A stretch of 64,000 bases of DNA from Escherichia phage vB_EcoP_SU10: the sequence record NC_027395.1; one strand, given 5' to 3'. This document shows positions 37,234 through 47,227 of this stretch, piece after piece. The position numbers and the translations under genes were made by a program. Numbering within the stretch: the first letter of the stretch is position 1; each line of letters starts with the position of its first letter. The notes below the pieces were generated by a model. The model was not told the DNA's origin and did not search any database. It was given only the letters and a program-made list of their open reading frames with translations.

Positions 37234-37449
37234 TTAGATAGTACACCCATCACAAGTTAAGTCACCTAGCAGGGACAGGGAAAGTAATCTGGATTGCTCA
37301 TCGCTGTATAGTTGATCAATCTCTTCTTTAAGTTTTGCCAACTCCATAAAGTTAATGAGCTGACCATGTTCGAGGCAGTCTGTTTTTAGTACGAACAAAA
37401 CTTCAGCGTCTGTTGAATCTTCACTTGAATATTTATCAATGTATTCCAT
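37234..37449 (-). CDS. Hypothetical protein (71 aa)
   Basis: ORF only. Confidence 0.4.
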   Translation of the reverse strand: MEYIDKYSSEDSTDAEVLFVLKTDCLEHGQLINFMELAKLKEEIDQLYSDEQSRLLSLSLLGDLTCDGCTI

Positions 37450-39482: not shown

Positions 39483-41327
39483 TTAGTGTGTATGCATCCA
39501 GTTAAGTCCAATCTGACAATCAGATGCCAGAGGACATTCCATGTTCAGATACTCGCCAGCTTTCTTAACACAAAGCTCAGTGTGCTCTTTGAGTTTCTGT
39601 ACATCATTACGGTTTACTGAGAATTGACCTTCATCGTGCATATCAATTACCTTAGCACAACGAACCTTATCTTTCTCAATCCACTTGTTAAGGAACATCA
39701 TAGCATATTTCATAACAACAGCACCAGCACATTGCAGGAGTGTGTTAAGGGCTTTATGAACCATAACCTTACCAGTGGCATCCCGTCTCATTGTAATCTT
39801 ACGACCATCAACTCCAATCAAGTATCCTTGAGCAGCTTTCTCTGTCATACGATCAATGAGGATTGCAATACATGGGTTCTCTGCTAAGAAACGTGCTCGC
39901 ATCACTGAACCTTCGTCAGCCCCACCACCTACAATTGAACCAAGCTTAGCATCGCCAGCACCGTAGTTGAATGCATAGATAAACGTTTTAGCGTTGTCAC
40001 GAGTAGGAAGACCAGCAAGTTTCTGGTTATGGGAGTGGATATCACCTTCAAGGAGAATATCACGATACATAATAGCAGAAGCTAAACCACGTTCTGCCAG
40101 AGCTTTCTTAGCTGGGTTGTTCTCTTCTATTGCCTCAGCAAGCATATCCCTACACTCTTTAATGAGGTAGTGAGCTAGCATACGAAGTTCAAGTCCAGAA
40201 CCATCATACCCTAAGAACACTTCTTTACCAGCGGGTATGTAATATTTGTAAGCACCTATAGGTTTGTCTTTCTTCCCCGGCTTACCTTTCTCGTAAATTA
40301 CGTTAGTACCTTTTCGTATATAACAACCATCAGGAACAACGTTAGTAATAACGAAAGGACGAGAGTGATCACTGTCTGAGTTATAGTCAGACTCAAACAA
40401 ACTGCGACACTCGTGACCAAACAGACCACGGGAGGGAATATTAACCACGATACGATGTTTGAATCGAAAAGTCGGCGTAGCGCAGCTGTTAGCTTCTGCC
40501 GAAAGTTTACCATCTTCGCGTTCCTTTGCTATAAGTCCACTGATAAGACCTAGCCTGTGAGCCGCTACAACGCGTCTCTTAAGCAAACTTCCGACACTCC
40601 CTAGCTCACCCCCTAACCCTTCTTCAAGAGTCTCCTCGAGGTTTGTAGGAGCTGTAGGCCACTTGTTTGATGTGGCTAGTGCTTTCTTAATCTCATCAAA
40701 CGTTACAGGATTACGGCGATTAGGGTTCAACCCCAAACCAAATACGTAAGCCTTCATGTAATTCTTAGTCTTAAACCTGAAATGCTTTTCTAAGAACTTC
40801 TTAATATCAGCGTCAACCATCTCGGCTGTCTGCTTCTGCTTAGCATTGCCTCGCATCCAAGCAGTATACCATGCTTGGTATGTTCCATACTTTCTCATAT
40901 CTTTCTTAATTTCGAAAGTATTCCAAGGCTTCTTAGACACGTTAAACTCTGGAGGAAGAAAGCCCTCATCCATAAGAGCTTCTTTAACTCGTGCATCTTT
41001 CGATGGGTCAAAGTCTACGTATTCAACACAGGTGAAAGCTCCACCAATATCTTCTCTCTTCAGCCCAACCCTATCACAATAGGCTTGAGGCCACTTCTGT
41101 AAAGCTCCAGACTTCTTAAACGGCTTCATGTAAGTAGAGCCGTCTAATCTCATCTTAGGTAAGAGAGGAATCAACTCTCTGTCAATATTAACAATAATCT
41201 CTTTAAGGAGGTGAACATACCACCGAGCATTTCTTCGGTTGAAACTCACTCCGTGCTTTGCTTGCTTAGAGATTATATCAGCGACAGTCATCTCTGTCAA
41301 AAATGGAAGAGCGTCCGGGTTGCTCAC
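39483..41327 (-). CDS. DNA polymerase, family A (polymerase domain only)
   Basis: Motif A LGYDGSGLELR, motif B RDNAKTFIYAFNYGAG, motif C MHDEGQ. Confidence 0.85.
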   Translation of the reverse strand: MSNPDALPFLTEMTVADIISKQAKHGVSFNRRNARWYVHLLKEIIVNIDRELIPLLPKMRLDGSTYMKPFKKSGALQKWPQAYCDRVGLKREDIGGAFTCVEYVDFDPSKDARVKEALMDEGFLPPEFNVSKKPWNTFEIKKDMRKYGTYQAWYTAWMRGNAKQKQTAEMVDADIKKFLEKHFRFKTKNYMKAYVFGLGLNPNRRNPVTFDEIKKALATSNKWPTAPTNLEETLEEGLGGELGSVGSLLKRRVVAAHRLGLISGLIAKEREDGKLSAEANSCATPTFRFKHRIVVNIPSRGLFGHECRSLFESDYNSDSDHSRPFVITNVVPDGCYIRKGTNVIYEKGKPGKKDKPIGAYKYYIPAGKEVFLGYDGSGLELRMLAHYLIKECRDMLAEAIEENNPAKKALAERGLASAIMYRDILLEGDIHSHNQKLAGLPTRDNAKTFIYAFNYGAGDAKLGSIVGGGADEGSVMRARFLAENPCIAILIDRMTEKAAQGYLIGVDGRKITMRRDATGKVMVHKALNTLLQCAGAVVMKYAMMFLNKWIEKDKVRCAKVIDMHDEGQFSVNRNDVQKLKEHTELCVKKAGEYLNMECPLASDCQIGLNWMHTH

Positions 41328-41760: not shown

Positions 41761-42045
41761 TCAACCTCTTGGGAATGGCATCAAAAATTCCACAGCAGAT
41801 TTAATTTCATTATTGATTCTTGAATCACGATAAGAGATAAACTTACCTTTGCTATCACGTAACATCACATTAGTTCTGGCTGTTTTGTGAGGGAGTAATG
41901 TGACACTAGTTGGAATAGCATCAACCCCTACAGCGTATTTGTCAATAGTCTTACTTTCAGCCAACAGATAAGACCAAGTACGCGGTTTCTGCTCCGGGCG
42001 GTTAGGGTATGTGTCCCGAATCTGAACCATAGCTAACTTATTCAT
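41761..42045 (-). CDS. Small protein, tandem paralog A (94 aa)
   Basis: Shares TARTNV.LR..GKFISY...AVE.L.PFP.G with the adjacent gene. Confidence 0.5.
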   Translation of the reverse strand: MNKLAMVQIRDTYPNRPEQKPRTWSYLLAESKTIDKYAVGVDAIPTSVTLLPHKTARTNVMLRDSKGKFISYRDSRINNEIKSAVEFLMPFPRG

Positions 42046-42046
42046 A

Positions 42047-42301
42047 TTAAACTCCTTTAGGGAATGGGATGAGATTTTCTACTGCAACACGGAAAGATTT
42101 TTCTACGTTCTTATTCTTATAAGAGATAAATTTTCCATCAGCTCCTCGAAGGAGTACGTTAGTGCGAGCTGTATTTGGGGTTTGTTGAATCATAGAACGA
42201 ATGATGTTCTCTGAACCTCTATGCTTATTGGTGAATTTCCAACTGATAGTTTTACCGGTACGAGATACATCAATAATATTTACAATTTTTACAATAGACA
42301 T
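42047..42301 (-). CDS. Small protein, tandem paralog B (84 aa)
   Basis: See paralog A. Confidence 0.5.
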   Translation of the reverse strand: MSIVKIVNIIDVSRTGKTISWKFTNKHRGSENIIRSMIQQTPNTARTNVLLRGADGKFISYKNKNVEKSFRVAVENLIPFPKGV

Positions 42302-42342
42302 ATTTATTACCTAAGAAATTTAATTTGGTTTATATAAAAGAA

Positions 42343-42366
42343 AAGGCCACCTGATTAGGCAGCCTT
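42343..42366 (-). terminator. Candidate terminator (minus strand)
   Basis: Imperfect hairpin AAGGC..CCT/AGG..GCCTT followed on minus strand by TTCTTTTAT. Confidence 0.4.
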
Positions 42367-42370
42367 TGTT

Positions 42371-42664
42371 CTAGAGACGAAGCCAAGTTTGATAGTCAGC
42401 TTCAGTGTAATGGTTGTTTCGAGAGTTGTTTTTCATTTCCTTGAGAGTAGCTCTCAGGTCAATGTTATGCTCTCTCCTTGTTCTATTCGGGTCTGTATCT
42501 TCTAATAGATGTGAGTGATCACTACAAGAGTAGTGCTTATAGTGGTCCCTGTATCCTCTACTTGGAGAATACTTGGTCATTAAAGTTGCAACTCTTTTTA
42601 CACCCTCTGCTTTACAGAATTTACAATAAGTGTGAATTGTACATCTTTTTGTTTCTGCTGACAC
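42371..42664 (-). CDS. Cys/His-rich small protein (97 aa), possible zinc-binding
   Basis: CTIHTYCKFC and HYKHYSCSDHSH clusters. Confidence 0.5.
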   Translation of the reverse strand: MSAETKRCTIHTYCKFCKAEGVKRVATLMTKYSPSRGYRDHYKHYSCSDHSHLLEDTDPNRTRREHNIDLRATLKEMKNNSRNNHYTEADYQTWLRL

Positions 42665-42674
42665 TATAACCTCT

Positions 42675-42989
42675 TTATGAGCTTAAAGCTCCTTTGCGTG
42701 CTCCAGCTGCTTTTCCAGCTCGATCACCACTTTTGCCGCCGTTTGAACGGTTTGAGCTGACTGATTCAACACGTAAGTTGCTTGACGCATTAGAGCCTCC
42801 AGACTTGACAGCTCGTTTGTGTCCAACGTCTTTACCTCTGACAGCAGCTTTTCCATCGCGCTTTTCAACGATGCGACGTGCACGGTGGCGCTGAGCATCT
42901 CCGCTCTTGCTCCCAACGCCTGTCTCACCACGGGCAATTGCGGTACGTCTTTCTTGTGCATAATCTCTCTTTCCTACATGATCTGCCAT
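42675..42989 (-). CDS. Basic G/S/K/R-rich low-complexity protein (104 aa); alternative overlapping frame exists
   Basis: AGGAG RBS 6 nt upstream of ATG and TAATGTATA element 37 nt upstream; overlaps a 92-aa coiled-coil ORF (42683-42961) in another frame. Confidence 0.45.
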   Translation of the reverse strand: MADHVGKRDYAQERRTAIARGETGVGSKSGDAQRHRARRIVEKRDGKAAVRGKDVGHKRAVKSGGSNASSNLRVESVSSNRSNGGKSGDRAGKAAGARKGALSS

Positions 42990-43025
42990 TTAAAACTCCT
43001 TAATATATCAGTGTACACTAAGGAG

Positions 43026-43034
43026 TATACATTA
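43026..43034 (-). promoter_or_regulatory. TAATGTATA promoter-like element (minus strand)
   Basis: Exact 9-mer 37 nt upstream of ATG 42989; inverted repeat TCCTTA...TAAGGA in the leader. Confidence 0.5.
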
Positions 43035-43045
43035 TAAGTTACTGT

Positions 43046-43783
43046 TTAAGCTTTCTTTTCCATTGCTTTAACAATCGCCTTACAGAAACCAGAACGAACA
43101 ATGTCATCCGATTCTCCGTCTACAATCTCAGCGAACTCATACAGATCATGTTCATCAATAAAGTTAGTAGCCCAAGTAAGACCACTCTCACGACCACGCA
43201 TATCATGCTGGTTTGTATCACCCATACAGAACAATTGAGAGGTTTCTCCCAATCGAGTCATGATGGAGAAGGCTTCATCCTTAGTTGTGTTCTGGAACTC
43301 ATCTACGATAACAATGGCATCATTGAAAGAGCGACCACGGAGATATTCCAGAGGTACAAATTCAATGTTACCATTTCCGATTTGGCATTCATAGAATCCC
43401 TTACCATATCGCTGAGTAATAACATCAATGATAGGCATCAGGTAAGGTTCAAACTTCTCACGCATTCCTCCCGGAAGTAACCCAAGAGAGTTTCCCATGC
43501 CAACCGAAGGGCGACTCAGAATGATCTTCTGAATCTTACCACTTTTCAGTGCATCGATAACCGTGGAAGTGATTACAAAGGTCTTACCACAGCCCGCAGG
43601 AGCGTCTGTGAACACAACTTGTTTAGTCTTAATAGCATTGAGTAGCTCAGACTGAAACTGGTTCTGAGGGACTACAGGCTTTGCTAAAACCACCTCTTCA
43701 TACTCTCGCTTACCCTTACGAGTAACAAGTGCTTCCCGACGAAGGTCTTTCCGTGATTCTTTCCGTGATTGACGACGACTCAT
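43046..43783 (-). CDS. phoH: PhoH-like ATPase
   Basis: Walker A VFTDAPAGCGKT; typical PhoH length and layout. Confidence 0.85.
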   Translation of the reverse strand: MSRRQSRKESRKDLRREALVTRKGKREYEEVVLAKPVVPQNQFQSELLNAIKTKQVVFTDAPAGCGKTFVITSTVIDALKSGKIQKIILSRPSVGMGNSLGLLPGGMREKFEPYLMPIIDVITQRYGKGFYECQIGNGNIEFVPLEYLRGRSFNDAIVIVDEFQNTTKDEAFSIMTRLGETSQLFCMGDTNQHDMRGRESGLTWATNFIDEHDLYEFAEIVDGESDDIVRSGFCKAIVKAMEKKA

Positions 43784-43965
43784 TTACGCTCTCCAATTTC
43801 TTCGTAATGACACTCAGTAGTTAAACAGTCTTTACAGATTGCTGTATAAACCCTGACGTTAGTAAATCGTTTGTTCTTCCCTTTGGTTGGAGAGCCTTTG
43901 GCAAGCTCTCTGATAATCTTGTTACTTAAATGAAGGTTTGTTCCTTCGCATTTAGAGCACTTCAT
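43780..43965 (-). CDS. Zinc-ribbon small protein (61 aa)
   Basis: CSKCEG ... CKDCLTTEC. Confidence 0.5.
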   Translation of the reverse strand: MKCSKCEGTNLHLSNKIIRELAKGSPTKGKNKRFTNVRVYTAICKDCLTTECHYEEIGERK

Positions 43966-44281
43966 GGTTCATATCTTTATGAATCCTGTAAACAGCTGTC
44001 GCCATACAAGCAACAGCCTCATTGTGTGGGAGATGCATTCCTGTAGAACCATCCCAATCTTTGAACTCATTGTCAAAGACTCCGGTAGGCTCTGGATACA
44101 GAGCTTGCAGCTCCACTAGATCATTAGCAACTTGTTGCCATTTATCATCAGACCAGATAGGGTCATCCAACCAGTAATACAAATAGGAATGGATGATCAA
44201 TTGCCTTCTATGCCGATTGATTACTTCAGCGGGACTTATTTCACTTCCATTTGAAGTCCTAAATGTATTACTGTCAATCAT
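43952..44281 (-). CDS. Hypothetical protein with NAD-ligase domain Ia-like motif (109 aa)
   Basis: HSYLYYWLDDPIWSDDKW...LVELQALYPEP resembles LigA N-terminal pattern (weak, motif-level). Confidence 0.45.
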   Translation of the reverse strand: MIDSNTFRTSNGSEISPAEVINRHRRQLIIHSYLYYWLDDPIWSDDKWQQVANDLVELQALYPEPTGVFDNEFKDWDGSTGMHLPHNEAVACMATAVYRIHKDMNHEVL

Positions 44282-44526
44282 TTCACAACCTTAAATTTGA
44301 ATGTTGTTGGGTGATAATAATGCAATCTATTGATAGTGTGTTTTGTTTCAAGATATATCCTGCAAGAGTGGCACATGACATGGGTCAGACCAGTTACAGG
44401 ATTAGGTTTAAAGTTGGCGACAGTCTTCTCTTTATTACAGAAGCTACAGACTTTCTTTTCCATCTTTTCTCCAGTGGTCAACGAATTGCTGAAACACTTT
44501 ACGATCAAATGTGAAATTACGAGCAA
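44278..44526 (-). CDS. Zinc-ribbon small protein (82 aa; TTG start in track, ATG start possible at MEKK)
   Basis: CSFCNKE ... CHSCRIY. Confidence 0.45.
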   Translation of the reverse strand: MLVISHLIVKCFSNSLTTGEKMEKKVCSFCNKEKTVANFKPNPVTGLTHVMCHSCRIYLETKHTINRLHYYHPTTFKFKVVK

Positions 44527-44677
44527 TTCCGCATTCTCTAAAAGTGGCAGGCATATAATCTACATCACCTTCAGATGTATGACCATAGACTTGAATAAGC
44601 TTCTTAATCTTATCTTTCTCTCTTCGAGGAAGCATTCTAAATGCCTCCTGAATATCTGTAATATGTTTTATCTTCAT
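44444..44677 (-). CDS. Hypothetical protein (77 aa)
   Basis: ORF only. Confidence 0.4.
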   Translation of the reverse strand: MKIKHITDIQEAFRMLPRREKDKIKKLIQVYGHTSEGDVDYMPATFRECGIARNFTFDRKVFQQFVDHWRKDGKESL

Positions 44678-44689
44678 AAGGAATTCCTG

Positions 44690-44824
44690 CTAATCCTCTG
44701 AGTTGTGGGAACAGCAATATTCACATACTCCGCAACATGGACAAATTTCTACACTTGGGTCATATGCATCATCAACTGTCATCCCACACTTGGTGCAGAA
44801 CACATCGTCATCTTCTTCCAACAT
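44690..44824 (-). CDS. Cys-rich small protein (44 aa), not in ORF track
   Basis: 9 Cys in 44 aa (CTKCG, CPCCGVCEYCC); ATG overlaps upstream stop (TAATG). Confidence 0.4.
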   Translation of the reverse strand: MLEEDDDVFCTKCGMTVDDAYDPSVEICPCCGVCEYCCSHNSED

Positions 44825-45072
44825 TAATTCTCCAAACAAGAATCATTCATCAGTAGCTCCAAACTATCAAGTGTGTAGTAATAACCAAAGAATGGGGCTG
44901 TTGACTTGGAAACCTTTTTATCAAAAAGAGATTGAGAAAGATTTATTTCTACTCCAGCATCTTCAAGCTGTTGTTTTGTGGGGTATGTAATGAAAGAGCA
45001 AAGCACTTCTGTGTACTCCCCTCTGTCTGTCTCTTCAACACGACTCAGAATCCAAATACTTTTACTAGCCAT
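44824..45072 (-). CDS. Hypothetical protein (82 aa)
   Basis: ORF coupled to ThyX gene (1-nt spacer). Confidence 0.45.
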   Translation of the reverse strand: MASKSIWILSRVEETDRGEYTEVLCSFITYPTKQQLEDAGVEINLSQSLFDKKVSKSTAPFFGYYYTLDSLELLMNDSCLEN

Positions 45073-45073
45073 T

Positions 45074-45730
45074 TTAACTCTCCAAAGTTTTCTTCAGAGC
45101 TGCCCACGAGATTGGGTAGAGTTTAGCCATCTCTTCATCTAGAGATTTAGCAAACACTCGAACTTCATATTGAGCGTGAGAGGAGAGTCGCTGACGGCAC
45201 AACTCAAACCAGCCATACAAAGAACCAGTCCACACCCACTCAGTGATCATCCCCTGAGGAAGAACAAATCGAGCTTGCTCTGGTGCAATAAATTCAATCA
45301 ACTTGTCATATGCTGCTAGAGAAGCTTCATATGCATCGTTAATCAGCATTAATGCTTCAGCTCGCTCTCCGTCGATGAGTTGAATCCCTGAACCTGCATG
45401 GAGGTCCGAAGGTCTCGCAAAAATCTCTTTAGGGATGAAGACTTCAACTGCTCCATCTTTATACCGCCGGGACATTTCGTTCCACGAGAATCCAACCTGA
45501 TGCTTGCCCAGCTGTCTCGCAATTGCGATAGGTGCTTTGCATCGGAAACTGACTTGCGGGTGTCGGAATGGGGTAACATGCCTCTCTCTTGCGAGGAAGT
45601 TGATGAGACGTTCATCACGTTCATTTAAATCACCTTCACGGGTTACGCCAAAGGAAACTCGAGCTGCGTTTACTACGCTACGATCACTTCCCATAGCTTC
45701 GATTAATGTTGCTTGTAGTTGTTCATTCAT
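45074..45730 (-). CDS. thyX: Flavin-dependent thymidylate synthase (ThyX family)
   Basis: RQLGKHQVGFSWNEMSRRY matches the ThyX RHR...S..E.S.RY signature region (as KHQ variant). Confidence 0.75.
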   Translation of the reverse strand: MNEQLQATLIEAMGSDRSVVNAARVSFGVTREGDLNERDERLINFLARERHVTPFRHPQVSFRCKAPIAIARQLGKHQVGFSWNEMSRRYKDGAVEVFIPKEIFARPSDLHAGSGIQLIDGERAEALMLINDAYEASLAAYDKLIEFIAPEQARFVLPQGMITEWVWTGSLYGWFELCRQRLSSHAQYEVRVFAKSLDEEMAKLYPISWAALKKTLES

Positions 45731-45745
45731 CCGTGAATATCCTTA

Positions 45746-46021
45746 TTACTTATTTCTCAGGGCTGTGTCCAAAAATGCTTTCAGGTTTGCTTCAGTCTGC
45801 ATACCGGAGAGGCTGTAGTGTGCACCACTGTTACGGTCAGGCACAACAAAAGCAGGGATGCTTCGTACACCATACTTAACAGCTTGTTCACGACCATCAC
45901 CTACAAGGATGTTAATCTCTTCCACTTCTACATCAAACTCCTTAACAACCTTCTCAAAGGTAGGAGCCATTGCTTTACATGGAGCACACTGATCACTATA
46001 AAACTTAATTACTTTAGACAT
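45746..46021 (-). CDS. Thioredoxin-like protein
   Basis: CAPC active-site motif in a 91-aa thioredoxin-sized protein. Confidence 0.8.
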   Translation of the reverse strand: MSKVIKFYSDQCAPCKAMAPTFEKVVKEFDVEVEEINILVGDGREQAVKYGVRSIPAFVVPDRNSGAHYSLSGMQTEANLKAFLDTALRNK

Positions 46022-46269: not shown

Positions 46270-46881
46270 TTAGTAAGACACATCACCACTTGAATGGGAC
46301 ATGTTGCTCTTGACGAAGTAGCAATACTTGCCAAGACCTTCATTAATTTCTTGAAGCATACTCTGATCGACAGGGTAAGTGGCTAAATCGCCATCAAACT
46401 CATCCATCTTCTCAATAATACACATCAAGGTCATGCACATATCAGAGAGCATACCGTCCATGTCTAGATCAGCATTACCCTCTGAGAACCAAGCATGAGA
46501 GAGGTAGTTAGCTGCTGTAGCATCCACTTTAACACAGTGATAACGCATACGTTCAGCAATACGATCTCCTACTTGTCGTGCGTAATTTTCCAACTCATCA
46601 AACATACCATGAACACCCTGAAATCCTGCACCAGAGACATTCCAGTGGTAGTTTTTAGCTTTGATATGCAAGAGTTCCATATTAGCTTGTAAGCAGCTCA
46701 GGATGTGTTCTAGGCTGTTTCCGCTAATCATACCCTGCATCGTTTCAAGGCGAGAGATTGAAAGCTCTGACCGATCTAACATATTATAGTCGGCACGACC
46801 AATATCAGGTAAATCAAAGACATTCTTATGCATTTGGGTTTTCTCCATCAAGTTCAACTGAGTTAGCAACGTTACGTGCAA
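46270..46881 (-). CDS. Dps/ferritin-like protein (start probably internal)
   Basis: KNYHWNVSGAGFQGVHGMFDEL...DRIAER matches the Dps HWNV.G..F..VH...D...AER signature. Confidence 0.65.
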   Translation of the reverse strand: MHVTLLTQLNLMEKTQMHKNVFDLPDIGRADYNMLDRSELSISRLETMQGMISGNSLEHILSCLQANMELLHIKAKNYHWNVSGAGFQGVHGMFDELENYARQVGDRIAERMRYHCVKVDATAANYLSHAWFSEGNADLDMDGMLSDMCMTLMCIIEKMDEFDGDLATYPVDQSMLQEINEGLGKYCYFVKSNMSHSSGDVSY

Positions 46882-47155
46882 TATTATCCATTACCTGCTG
46901 GGTAATTACGATGCAGTTCTGTGGGTCTACTGACTTAGAACGCCCCATTTCAGGGTCATACACCTTAACTCGCTTAGCAGTTGAACCTGTAACCTGAAGA
47001 ACCTTCAACAGATATCCCTGATTACCAATAGACCAAGCAACAACATCACGATTCTTGATAAAGCGACCAAGCATATCACGATGATAAAACTGTTGCATCA
47101 CCTTGGATTTTGTAATCTCTTCAGTGGGCGGGGCCACTTTACTCAAATCTAACAT
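46826..47155 (-). CDS. Hypothetical protein (109 aa)
   Basis: Near-consensus AAATGTATA element about 40 nt upstream. Confidence 0.45.
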   Translation of the reverse strand: MLDLSKVAPPTEEITKSKVMQQFYHRDMLGRFIKNRDVVAWSIGNQGYLLKVLQVTGSTAKRVKVYDPEMGRSKSVDPQNCIVITQQVMDNIARNVANSVELDGENPNA

Positions 47156-47227
47156 AACTCTCTCCTGTAAAATACAAATTCTTATTGTACTCTATATACA
47201 TTTGAGAGTTATCATATCTACTACCAA

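Follow-up and report, generated by a model that had tools for sequence, protein, structure and literature searches.

Small proteins with paired Cys/His clusters around a PhoH gene

Why do several small proteins with paired Cys/His clusters lie close together around the PhoH gene of Escherichia phage vB_EcoP_SU10, and do they form one system? We addressed this question in a 64,000-nucleotide (nt) stretch of the phage genome (NC_027395.1), referred to below as the window. An earlier note, made from the DNA sequence, had singled out four small open reading frames (ORFs) at 42371-42664, 43780-43965, 44278-44526, and 44690-44824, and had read their products as small zinc-binding transcription or host-takeover factors. 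All four ORFs are indeed open on the minus strand. With the start of the third corrected (see below), the genes, which we name A to D, are as follows.

Gene A: 42371-42664, minus strand, 97 amino acids (aa), phrog_9585
Gene B: 43780-43965, minus strand, 61 aa, homologue of phi32_61, phrog_14369/34669
Gene C: 44278-44463, minus strand, 61 aa, homologue of phi32_63, phrog_15951
Gene D: 44690-44824, minus strand, 44 aa, phrog_16989

The window belongs to a Kuravirus (phiEco32-like) podophage of E. coli. The 4.8 kb around the four genes display ~96% DNA identity to SkaterBoy_Bas90, and 97 phage records, with hosts that are almost all Escherichia or Shigella, match the same 4.8 kb. SkaterBoy_Bas90, a Kuravirus that infects K-12, has all of A-D at 95-100% identity, and its A and D do not differ from those of the window. 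Placement in the Gordonclarkvirinae, genus Kuravirus, among the phiEco32-like C3 podophages, was made via annotated relatives. As assessed by GC skew and ORF layout, the minus strand carries the genes from ~30 kb to 64 kb. This minus-strand cluster consists of 70 genes, and A-D are set among genes for replication and nucleotide metabolism.

Genes A-D are real genes under strong purifying selection. Nei-Gojobori comparisons with relatives gave ratios of nonsynonymous to synonymous substitution rates (dN/dS) of 0.09 for A, 0.07-0.25 for B, 0.04-0.11 for C, and 0.05-0.12 for D. The earlier note had proposed to abandon the finding if the ORFs were not conserved in relatives; we looked for this, and all four are conserved. 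As assessed by tblastn against 50,697 phage records, B is found in 105 records (~98 of Gordonclarkvirinae type and 7 Salmonella 7-11-like phages), C in 89 (Gordonclarkvirinae type only, ~90% of the Gordonclarkvirinae), D in 49 (all at least 84% identical, about half of the Gordonclarkvirinae), and A in 96 (~21 Kuravirus-like at 90% or more, i.e. ~20%, with the others in other phage groups). In IMG/VR, scans for the B, C, and D families yielded nothing further beyond a few B homologues of 7-11-like type, and a word-indexed protein search, which returned only two near-identical matches for B and one for D, was uninformative. The idea that these are chance ORFs, or artefacts of Cys-rich frames, draws on D, which is only 44 aa long, starts with a codon other than ATG in relatives, and is frequently missing from annotations. 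It is nevertheless refuted by the selection analysis, and we give it almost no credence: D has a low dN/dS, keeps its eight Cys invariant through up to 19 synonymous changes, and follows a conserved GGAG, whereas a motif comparable to those of the four genes is found in only 1 of 116 ORFs on the non-coding strand.

Judged by their sequences, A-D have the hallmarks of zinc ribbons, i.e. two knuckles with ligands that are kept while other Cys/His vary. The knuckles are C14xxC17...C47xxH50 in A, C3xxC6...C44xxC47 in B, C6xxC9...C31xxC34 in C, and C10xxC13...C28xxC31 in D, with a spacing of 21-37 residues in A, B, and C. Because these ligand sets survive divergence and the extra Cys/His do not, the paired patterns are meaningful. 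The clusters described in the earlier note thus hold for the ligands, but not for C8 and H52 of A or C52 and H53 of B, which vary. When each protein is shuffled, the probability of obtaining as many CxxC pairs as observed, or more, is 0.03 for B, 0.008 for C, 0.012 for D, and 0.12 for A. A two-knuckle zinc-like motif is present in 4-5 of 39 small coding genes versus 1 of 116 non-coding-strand ORFs of 40-110 aa in the same 34 kb (Fisher P = 0.014/0.004). The notable local density previously reported was borne out, as the 70-gene cluster has no small genes with such motifs other than these four, and all of them fall within eight consecutive genes (P about 0.004 for random placement among the 39 small genes). 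A fifth candidate (37234-37449, CLEH...CDGC) was not counted because CDGC is kept in 0 of 81 relatives. In this 71-aa minus-strand ORF, the C-terminal 17 residues, which include CDGC, are unmatched in 81 related records, in which alignments stop at residue 54, and the C terminus may be a window-specific variant or a frameshift.

Are the four genes related to one another? Profile-profile comparison of the A, B, and C families by hhalign gave probabilities of 0.3-3%, and paralogy among the four was rejected on this basis. Since the families are mutually unrelated and their distributions differ, the run looks like a set of independent accessory genes in a mosaic interval rather than a coordinated set. 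The reading that we favor, and consider fairly probable, is therefore that A-D are independently evolving small metal-stabilised proteins gathered in a mosaic middle-operon interval, and not one system. Each protein is predicted to fold around a tetrahedral Cys4 or Cys3His metal site. A, B, and C, which have isoelectric points (pI) of 9.3-9.7, would most plausibly be basic zinc ribbons serving as nucleic-acid- or protein-binding adaptors for replication or nucleotide metabolism. The genes between ThyX and PolA are not the same in any relative examined, with small genes and HNH endonucleases gained or lost in each. This stretch would be a mosaic hot spot with translationally coupled junctions, at which small accessory genes come and go, and this would be why the four genes sit together. 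In the order of transcription, the other features of the locus are as follows.

gp68 (phi32_68) homologue: 46826-47155, minus strand
Dps-like gene: 46270-46881, minus strand
59-aa membrane protein gene: between the Dps-like and thioredoxin genes, minus strand
Thioredoxin gene: 45746-46021, minus strand
ThyX gene: 45074-45730, minus strand
82-aa accessory gene: 44824-45072, minus strand, stop overlapping the ATG of gene D
77-aa accessory gene: 44444-44677, minus strand, phrog_4452, not Cys-rich
Solo Nlig-Ia NAD+-binding domain gene: 43952-44281, minus strand, homologue of phi32_62 (PF22745, E = 2.1e-35), not Cys-rich
PhoH-like ATPase gene: 43046-43783, minus strand (PF02562, E = 1.7e-56)
gp58 homologue: 42675-42989, minus strand, 104 aa, basic, core, 100% identical to phi32_58, phrog_4590
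Intrinsic terminator: 42342-42367, minus strand, 11-bp stem then T-run, directly after gene A
Three small ORFs: between the terminator and PolA, minus strand
PolA gene: 39483-41327, minus strand

Gene models, motifs and likenesses of the four families

Gene D encodes an acidic 44-aa chain (pI 4.05, 12 Asp/Glu versus one Lys/Arg). In relatives, it starts at a TTG (44819-44821), which is codon 2 of the window ORF, behind the conserved GGAG. It contains eight Cys (C10, C13, C28, C30, C31, C34, C37, and C38) rather than the nine initially counted. D had also been described as unannotated, which is true of WFI101126 and PGN6866, where it is left out, but not of SkaterBoy, NJ01, KBNP1711, and others, where it is annotated as membrane protein or putative NAD+ diphosphatase. 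Neither label holds. The NAD+ diphosphatase NudC label (NJ01, SGF2, O18-011) is attached to a protein of only 44 aa, in which Pfam finds no NUDIX or zf-NADH-PPase domain. As for the membrane protein label of phrog_16989, D covers only positions 2-38 of this 122-position profile and has no hydrophobic segment, its longest run of hydrophobic/small residues being five. The two knuckles, FCTKCG and ICPCCG, are of the rubredoxin type. D therein resembles CxxCG/CPxCG mini-domains, with both knuckles being textbook cases (Pfam Zn_Ribbon_1 and Zn_ribbon_3), although these matches stay below threshold (E = 0.012-0.13) and the score against rubredoxin itself is E = 4.8. Unlike generic zinc ribbons, it has four more invariant Cys (C30, C34, C37, and C38) within its short acidic chain. 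D would thus be an acidic Cys8 mini-metalloprotein, in which the eight Cys are enough for two sites or one cluster. A SCIFF-like reading, i.e. a ribosomally synthesised and post-translationally modified peptide matured by a radical S-adenosylmethionine enzyme, was dropped: the 64-kb window holds no ORF of at least 100 aa with CxxxCxxC (~13 kb of the genome lie outside it).

For gene C, the 44278-44526 interval is the longest frame (TTG start, 82 aa), but the gene itself starts at the ATG at 44463 and encodes 61 aa. All relatives use the equivalent ATG, which has a GGAG 6 nt upstream, and the TTG extension would overlap the preceding gene. The C protein is basic, its four Cys (C6, C9, C31, and C34) are all invariant, and it ends with a conserved INxLHY...KV motif. 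Gene C is near-core in Gordonclarkvirinae, and its stop overlaps the start of Nlig-Ia. Its end reads AAGG-N8-ATGA, i.e. a ribosome-binding site followed by an ATGA coupling site, which is a junction built for translational coupling. The last ~45 nt of the gene (44278-44325) are almost invariant in DNA across Kuravirus, Nieuwekanaalvirus, and EK010, and the gene that follows varies (Nlig-Ia, or ORFs of 56, 67, or 81 aa). From this pattern, the end of gene C probably serves recombination as a conserved mosaic junction.

In length (~60 aa) and knuckle pattern, C resembles Lar/RalR of the Rac prophage, with its K-x-C-x-F-C...C-x-x-C knuckles aligning to the Lar zinc ribbon in nine of nine members. 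Weak matches to Lar_restr_allev (PF14354) were found in the same proportion of members, the best of which (18.9 bits, E = 0.0019) falls below the Pfam cut-off of 28.6. An hhalign comparison with Rac RalR/Lar (E = 0.0017, probability 15%) aligned only the knuckles, and the C-terminal half of C, YLETKHTINRLHYYHPTTFKFKVVK, has no counterpart in RalR. At the sequence level, this is a resemblance rather than membership, and C may be a Lar-like zinc ribbon. C also matches the N-terminal 43 of the 171 positions of phrog_2340, an endonuclease profile (E = 8.4e-4). An HNH homing endonuclease was rejected for C because the catalytic domain is unmatched and the protein ends after 61 aa. The same match could suggest that the four genes are remnants of homing endonucleases, i.e. 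orphaned DNA-binding modules left in an insertion hot spot by decayed HNH genes, and HNH genes are inserted at several points of the interval in relatives. We consider this very unlikely in view of the strong purifying selection, fixed lengths, and near-core distribution; there are no HNH catalytic residues and no flanking pseudogene fragments, and no similar CxxC module is seen at the N terminus in those local HNH genes that were examined.

The likeness to Lar also bears on the most interesting alternative, that of a counter-defence island in which some or all of the small zinc proteins, together with Nlig-Ia and the phrog_4452 gene, would inhibit host immunity by binding and blocking restriction or NAD+-depleting effectors, e.g. 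by restriction alleviation. Several lines of evidence are consistent with it in addition to the Lar matches. The protein encoded at 43952-44281 is a PF22745 member that, like published solo Nlig-Ia proteins, has no ligase catalytic module, and the solo Nlig-Ia of the Kuravirus group, exemplified by ECBP2_0056, has been proposed to be an NAD+ sensor or shield (Iyer et al. 2022, PMC9503650). The neighboring 77-aa gene carries the phrog_4452 label, the interval is hypervariable, and the patchy spread of A across phage families is typical of accessory counter-defence genes. Moreover, Gordonclarkvirinae are reported to be remarkably resistant to restriction-modification (RM), with no known modification pathway or inhibitor (PMC11990801). 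On the other hand, the Lar score is well short of its cut-off and the likeness is limited to generic zinc knuckles, expression from a middle promoter would be late for anti-restriction, B and C are near-core rather than variable, and Pfam, NCBIfam, and PHROG searches link none of A, B, and D to known anti-defence families. For the RM resistance itself, the BASEL authors favor DNA modification by a dCTP deaminase and a nucleotidyltransferase (PMC11990801). Nlig-Ia, unlike C and B, is not a zinc protein, and Nieuwekanaalvirus genomes without Nlig-Ia still carry C and B, so no obligate link is apparent. Taken together, these findings make a counter-defence island possible but unlikely. The 77-aa gene deserves a separate remark: its PHROG label reads anti-restriction nuclease, it has a weak Protein Data Bank (PDB) match to an anti-CRISPR protein (9wa8, E = 0.033), and it was found in only 3 of 15 related loci searched locally and is absent from phiEco32.

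Gene B encodes a basic protein with a zinc ribbon (C3, C6, C44, and C47) plus C52. Only the four ligands are invariant, and Nieuwekanaalvirus and Suseptimavirus have neither C52 nor H53. In its central loop, ELxKGSPxxGKNK (RELAKGSPTKGKNK in the window), the residues E, L, K, G, S, P, G, K, N, and K do not vary, and this extends to 7-11-like phages. B is essentially core, being present in nearly all phiEco32-like phages and also in 7-11-like phages. An isoleucyl-tRNA synthetase label, carried by the B homologue of NJ01, does not hold for a 61-aa protein with no tRNA-synthetase match. The stop of B overlaps the start of PhoH (ATGA), and B ends exactly at the PhoH start in 11 of 11 Gordonclarkvirinae loci examined. 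B is thus probably made in a fixed ratio with PhoH. Most likely, it would be co-translated with PhoH and act as its partner, presenting the basic loop to nucleic acid. In a low-confidence AlphaFold2 model, B is all-beta with four strands and a disordered loop. Suseptimavirus B homologues (EK010 L004 4079-4261; L005, L013) keep the first CxxC, but none of the start codons ATG, GTG, and TTG precedes it. Their first aligned codon is a CTG that overlaps the TGA stop of Nlig-Ia (CTGA), a layout suggestive of initiation that is non-canonical or coupled. In annotations, the gene is either missing or truncated.

Gene A (GTG start, AGAGG ribosome-binding site) encodes a 97-aa protein with a pI of 9.3, seven His, and four Cys (C8, C14, C17, and C47). 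It consists of an N-terminal CxxC...CxxH zinc ribbon (C14, C17, C47, and H50), an EDTDP motif, a variable helical linker, and an invariant C-terminal [ST]EADYQTWx[RK]L motif (C-terminal peptide HYTEADYQTWLRL). In the family, C14, C17, and C47 do not vary, residue 50 is either His or Cys throughout, and H44 is invariant among closer members only. The C-terminal motif ends all full-length members, and two fragmentary or frameshifted representatives are without it. An exhaustive HMMER profile search of 1.84 billion representatives returned only 16 clusters, all stand-alone proteins of 60-136 aa, with no fused domains hinting at function. The AlphaFold2 model, which has a predicted local distance difference test (pLDDT) score of 79.8, displays a zinc-ribbon-like N-terminal domain with short strands and helices around the knuckles, a long helix (63-82), and a terminal helix (88-95). 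Foldseek found no significant PDB match for this model, and its sole BFVD match is its own uncharacterised family. Beta-clamp binding by the C terminus was tried and rejected. The clamp-binding motif is QLxLF or QLxLxL, with conserved hydrophobic positions (PMC4564189), whereas A ends in QTW-x-[RK]-L (QTWLRL in the window), with Thr at position 2 and a position 4 that varies freely (L, G, M, Y, W, H, E), for which reason the idea was discarded.

Homologues of A span four phage groups, including N4-like Schitoviridae, Guernseyvirinae and Kagunavirus siphophages, and Vequintavirinae, and share 45-60% identity outside Kuravirus-like phages. In Guernseyvirinae and Kagunavirus siphophages, the homologue lies between the DUF2815/Enc34 single-stranded DNA-binding protein gene and PolA, abutting or overlapping the PolA start. 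In N4-like Schitoviridae, including a Klebsiella phage, it is directly upstream of the RNAP2 small-subunit gene. PhiEco32 and Paul have only a 68-nt intergenic gap after the gp58 homologue, where the window has A and the terminator. As far as can be judged from this distribution, A is a mobile accessory gene. It could encode a horizontally mobile adaptor, in which a DNA-facing zinc ribbon and a variable linker would be followed by an amphipathic C-terminal helix (EADYQTWxRL) docking on a conserved partner.

Transcription context and the balance of readings

In phiEco32, promoters of the gp36 sigma factor (consensus tAATGTAtA) have been mapped before genes 6, 13, 26, 40, 58, and 68, and the polymerase/nucleotide-metabolism/sigma cluster belongs to the middle class, the early cluster being the likely host-takeover region (PMC8948821). 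The window contains an exact gp36-sigma middle/late promoter element, TAATGTATA, at 43026-43034 (minus strand), within the 56 nt that separate PhoH from the gp58 homologue. A second gp36-type element with one mismatch, AAATGTATA, is at 47195-47203 (minus strand), in the spacer before the gp68 homologue. Genome-wide matches to the 9-mer are no commoner than expected by chance, so it is the positions that carry evidence and not the count. In phiEco32, promoters have been mapped experimentally at these same two positions, ahead of genes 58 and 68. By analogy, the operon of D, C, and B probably starts at the AAATGTATA site, and these three would be distal genes of a middle operon, with A as the second gene of a two-gene middle unit. 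The first unit would run from the P68-like promoter through gp68 homologue, Dps, Trx, ThyX, 82-aa gene, D, 77-aa gene, C, Nlig-Ia, B, and PhoH. The second would run from the P58-like promoter through the gp58 homologue and A to the terminator, a strong hairpin annotated at the same place in WFI101126.

This context bears on the original interpretation, i.e. that the four proteins are transcription regulators or host-takeover factors binding RNA polymerase or host DNA, like small phage zinc-finger activators. Among such factors, small basic zinc ribbons are common. The location of the A homologue next to the RNAP2 small-subunit gene of an N4-like Klebsiella phage is consistent with this interpretation, as are weak matches of C members (six of nine) to Elf1-type zinc ribbons, the best of which (E = 6e-4) is below cut-off. 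However, the four genes lie in the middle replication/nucleotide-metabolism cluster and not in the early, likely host-takeover cluster, and the known phiEco32 regulators are gp36 and gp79 (PMC8948821). No transcription-factor family is matched at cut-off, nor is any characterised factor. The earlier note was right about small proteins with paired CxxC/CxxH knuckles, the ligands of which prove to be kept under strong purifying selection, but the role it gave them is unsupported, and we regard it as improbable, more so than counter-defence.

Several findings weigh against the reading that we favor, that of independent metal-stabilised proteins in a mosaic interval, or against parts of it. A-D have no significant fold or sequence match that would give a biochemical activity: none reaches cut-off in Pfam or NCBIfam, no PDB match to the profiles of the four families has an E below 0.29, and the PHROG matches (full-length for A, B, and C, with E = 1e-45 to 1e-46, A at 5.5e-46; E = 4.5e-16 for D) are uninformative, as they lead to sequence clusters without function or to labels that the sequences do not bear out. 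For the middle-class assignment, the evidence is carried over from phiEco32. The neighbors of A vary by phage group (PolA, N4-type RNAP2 small subunit, and runs of small ORFs), and the model of B is of low confidence (pLDDT 62). In 7-11-like phages B is separated from PhoH, and upstream of other phage PhoH genes (Vequintavirinae, Vibrio phage) there are other genes and no zinc ribbon. On the basis of these gene orders we rejected a general zinc-ribbon/PhoH linkage and, because adjacency is lost in the former and no zinc ribbon is found in the latter, a partnership of B with PhoH would be lineage-specific at best.

Small zinc-ribbon ORFans abound in phage genomes, and the four genes are ordinary in this respect, having already been deposited as PHROGs or hypothetical proteins in dozens of Kuravirus records. 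What is gained here are corrected gene models and ligand sets, a placement in middle operons under the phage sigma factor, and evidence contradicting three misleading labels (NAD+ diphosphatase, membrane protein, and isoleucyl-tRNA synthetase). Two leads stand out, the conserved translational coupling of B and PhoH, and the invariant C-terminal motif of the A family, which is common to unrelated phage groups. It is a long shot that a near-core zinc ribbon, most likely C, is behind the reported pan-RM resistance of Gordonclarkvirinae, or that A represents a new adaptor class with which four unrelated phage lineages hijack a conserved enterobacterial protein by means of the invariant C-terminal helix, EADYQTWxRL. 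If one of these proteins did explain the RM resistance of the subfamily, or were a partner of phage PhoH, this would matter to phage-host biology.

Other features of the interval

The gp58 homologue that precedes A is very basic, has its own phage-sigma promoter, and is conserved out to Salmonella phage 7-11. Pfam and PDB searches returned no match for it, and it contains an HNH-like string, HKRAVKSGGSNASSNLRV. Downstream of the terminator, two tandem paralogues on the minus strand (41761-42045 and 42047-42301) both match phrog_6814 (E ~1e-37) and have the common motif KTARTNV.LR...GKF.SY. At 41272-41300 on the minus strand, a promoter matches the extended sigma-70 consensus perfectly (12 of 12; TTGACA and TATAAT, separated by 17 nt of which the last two are TG). 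It is within the first 55 nt of the PolA coding sequence and on its coding strand.

Finally, relatives harbor a small family with the N-terminal sequence MKVALVI.D.GDG..., which is not present in the window. It has four Cys in two Kuravirus members and only two in phage 7-11. In some Kuraviruses its gene follows closely downstream of PhoH, and in 7-11-like phages it comes directly after the B homologue. Its members, by locus, are as follows.

L002: 3595-3780
L003: 3124-3309
L007: 2807-3016
L027: 2671-2895

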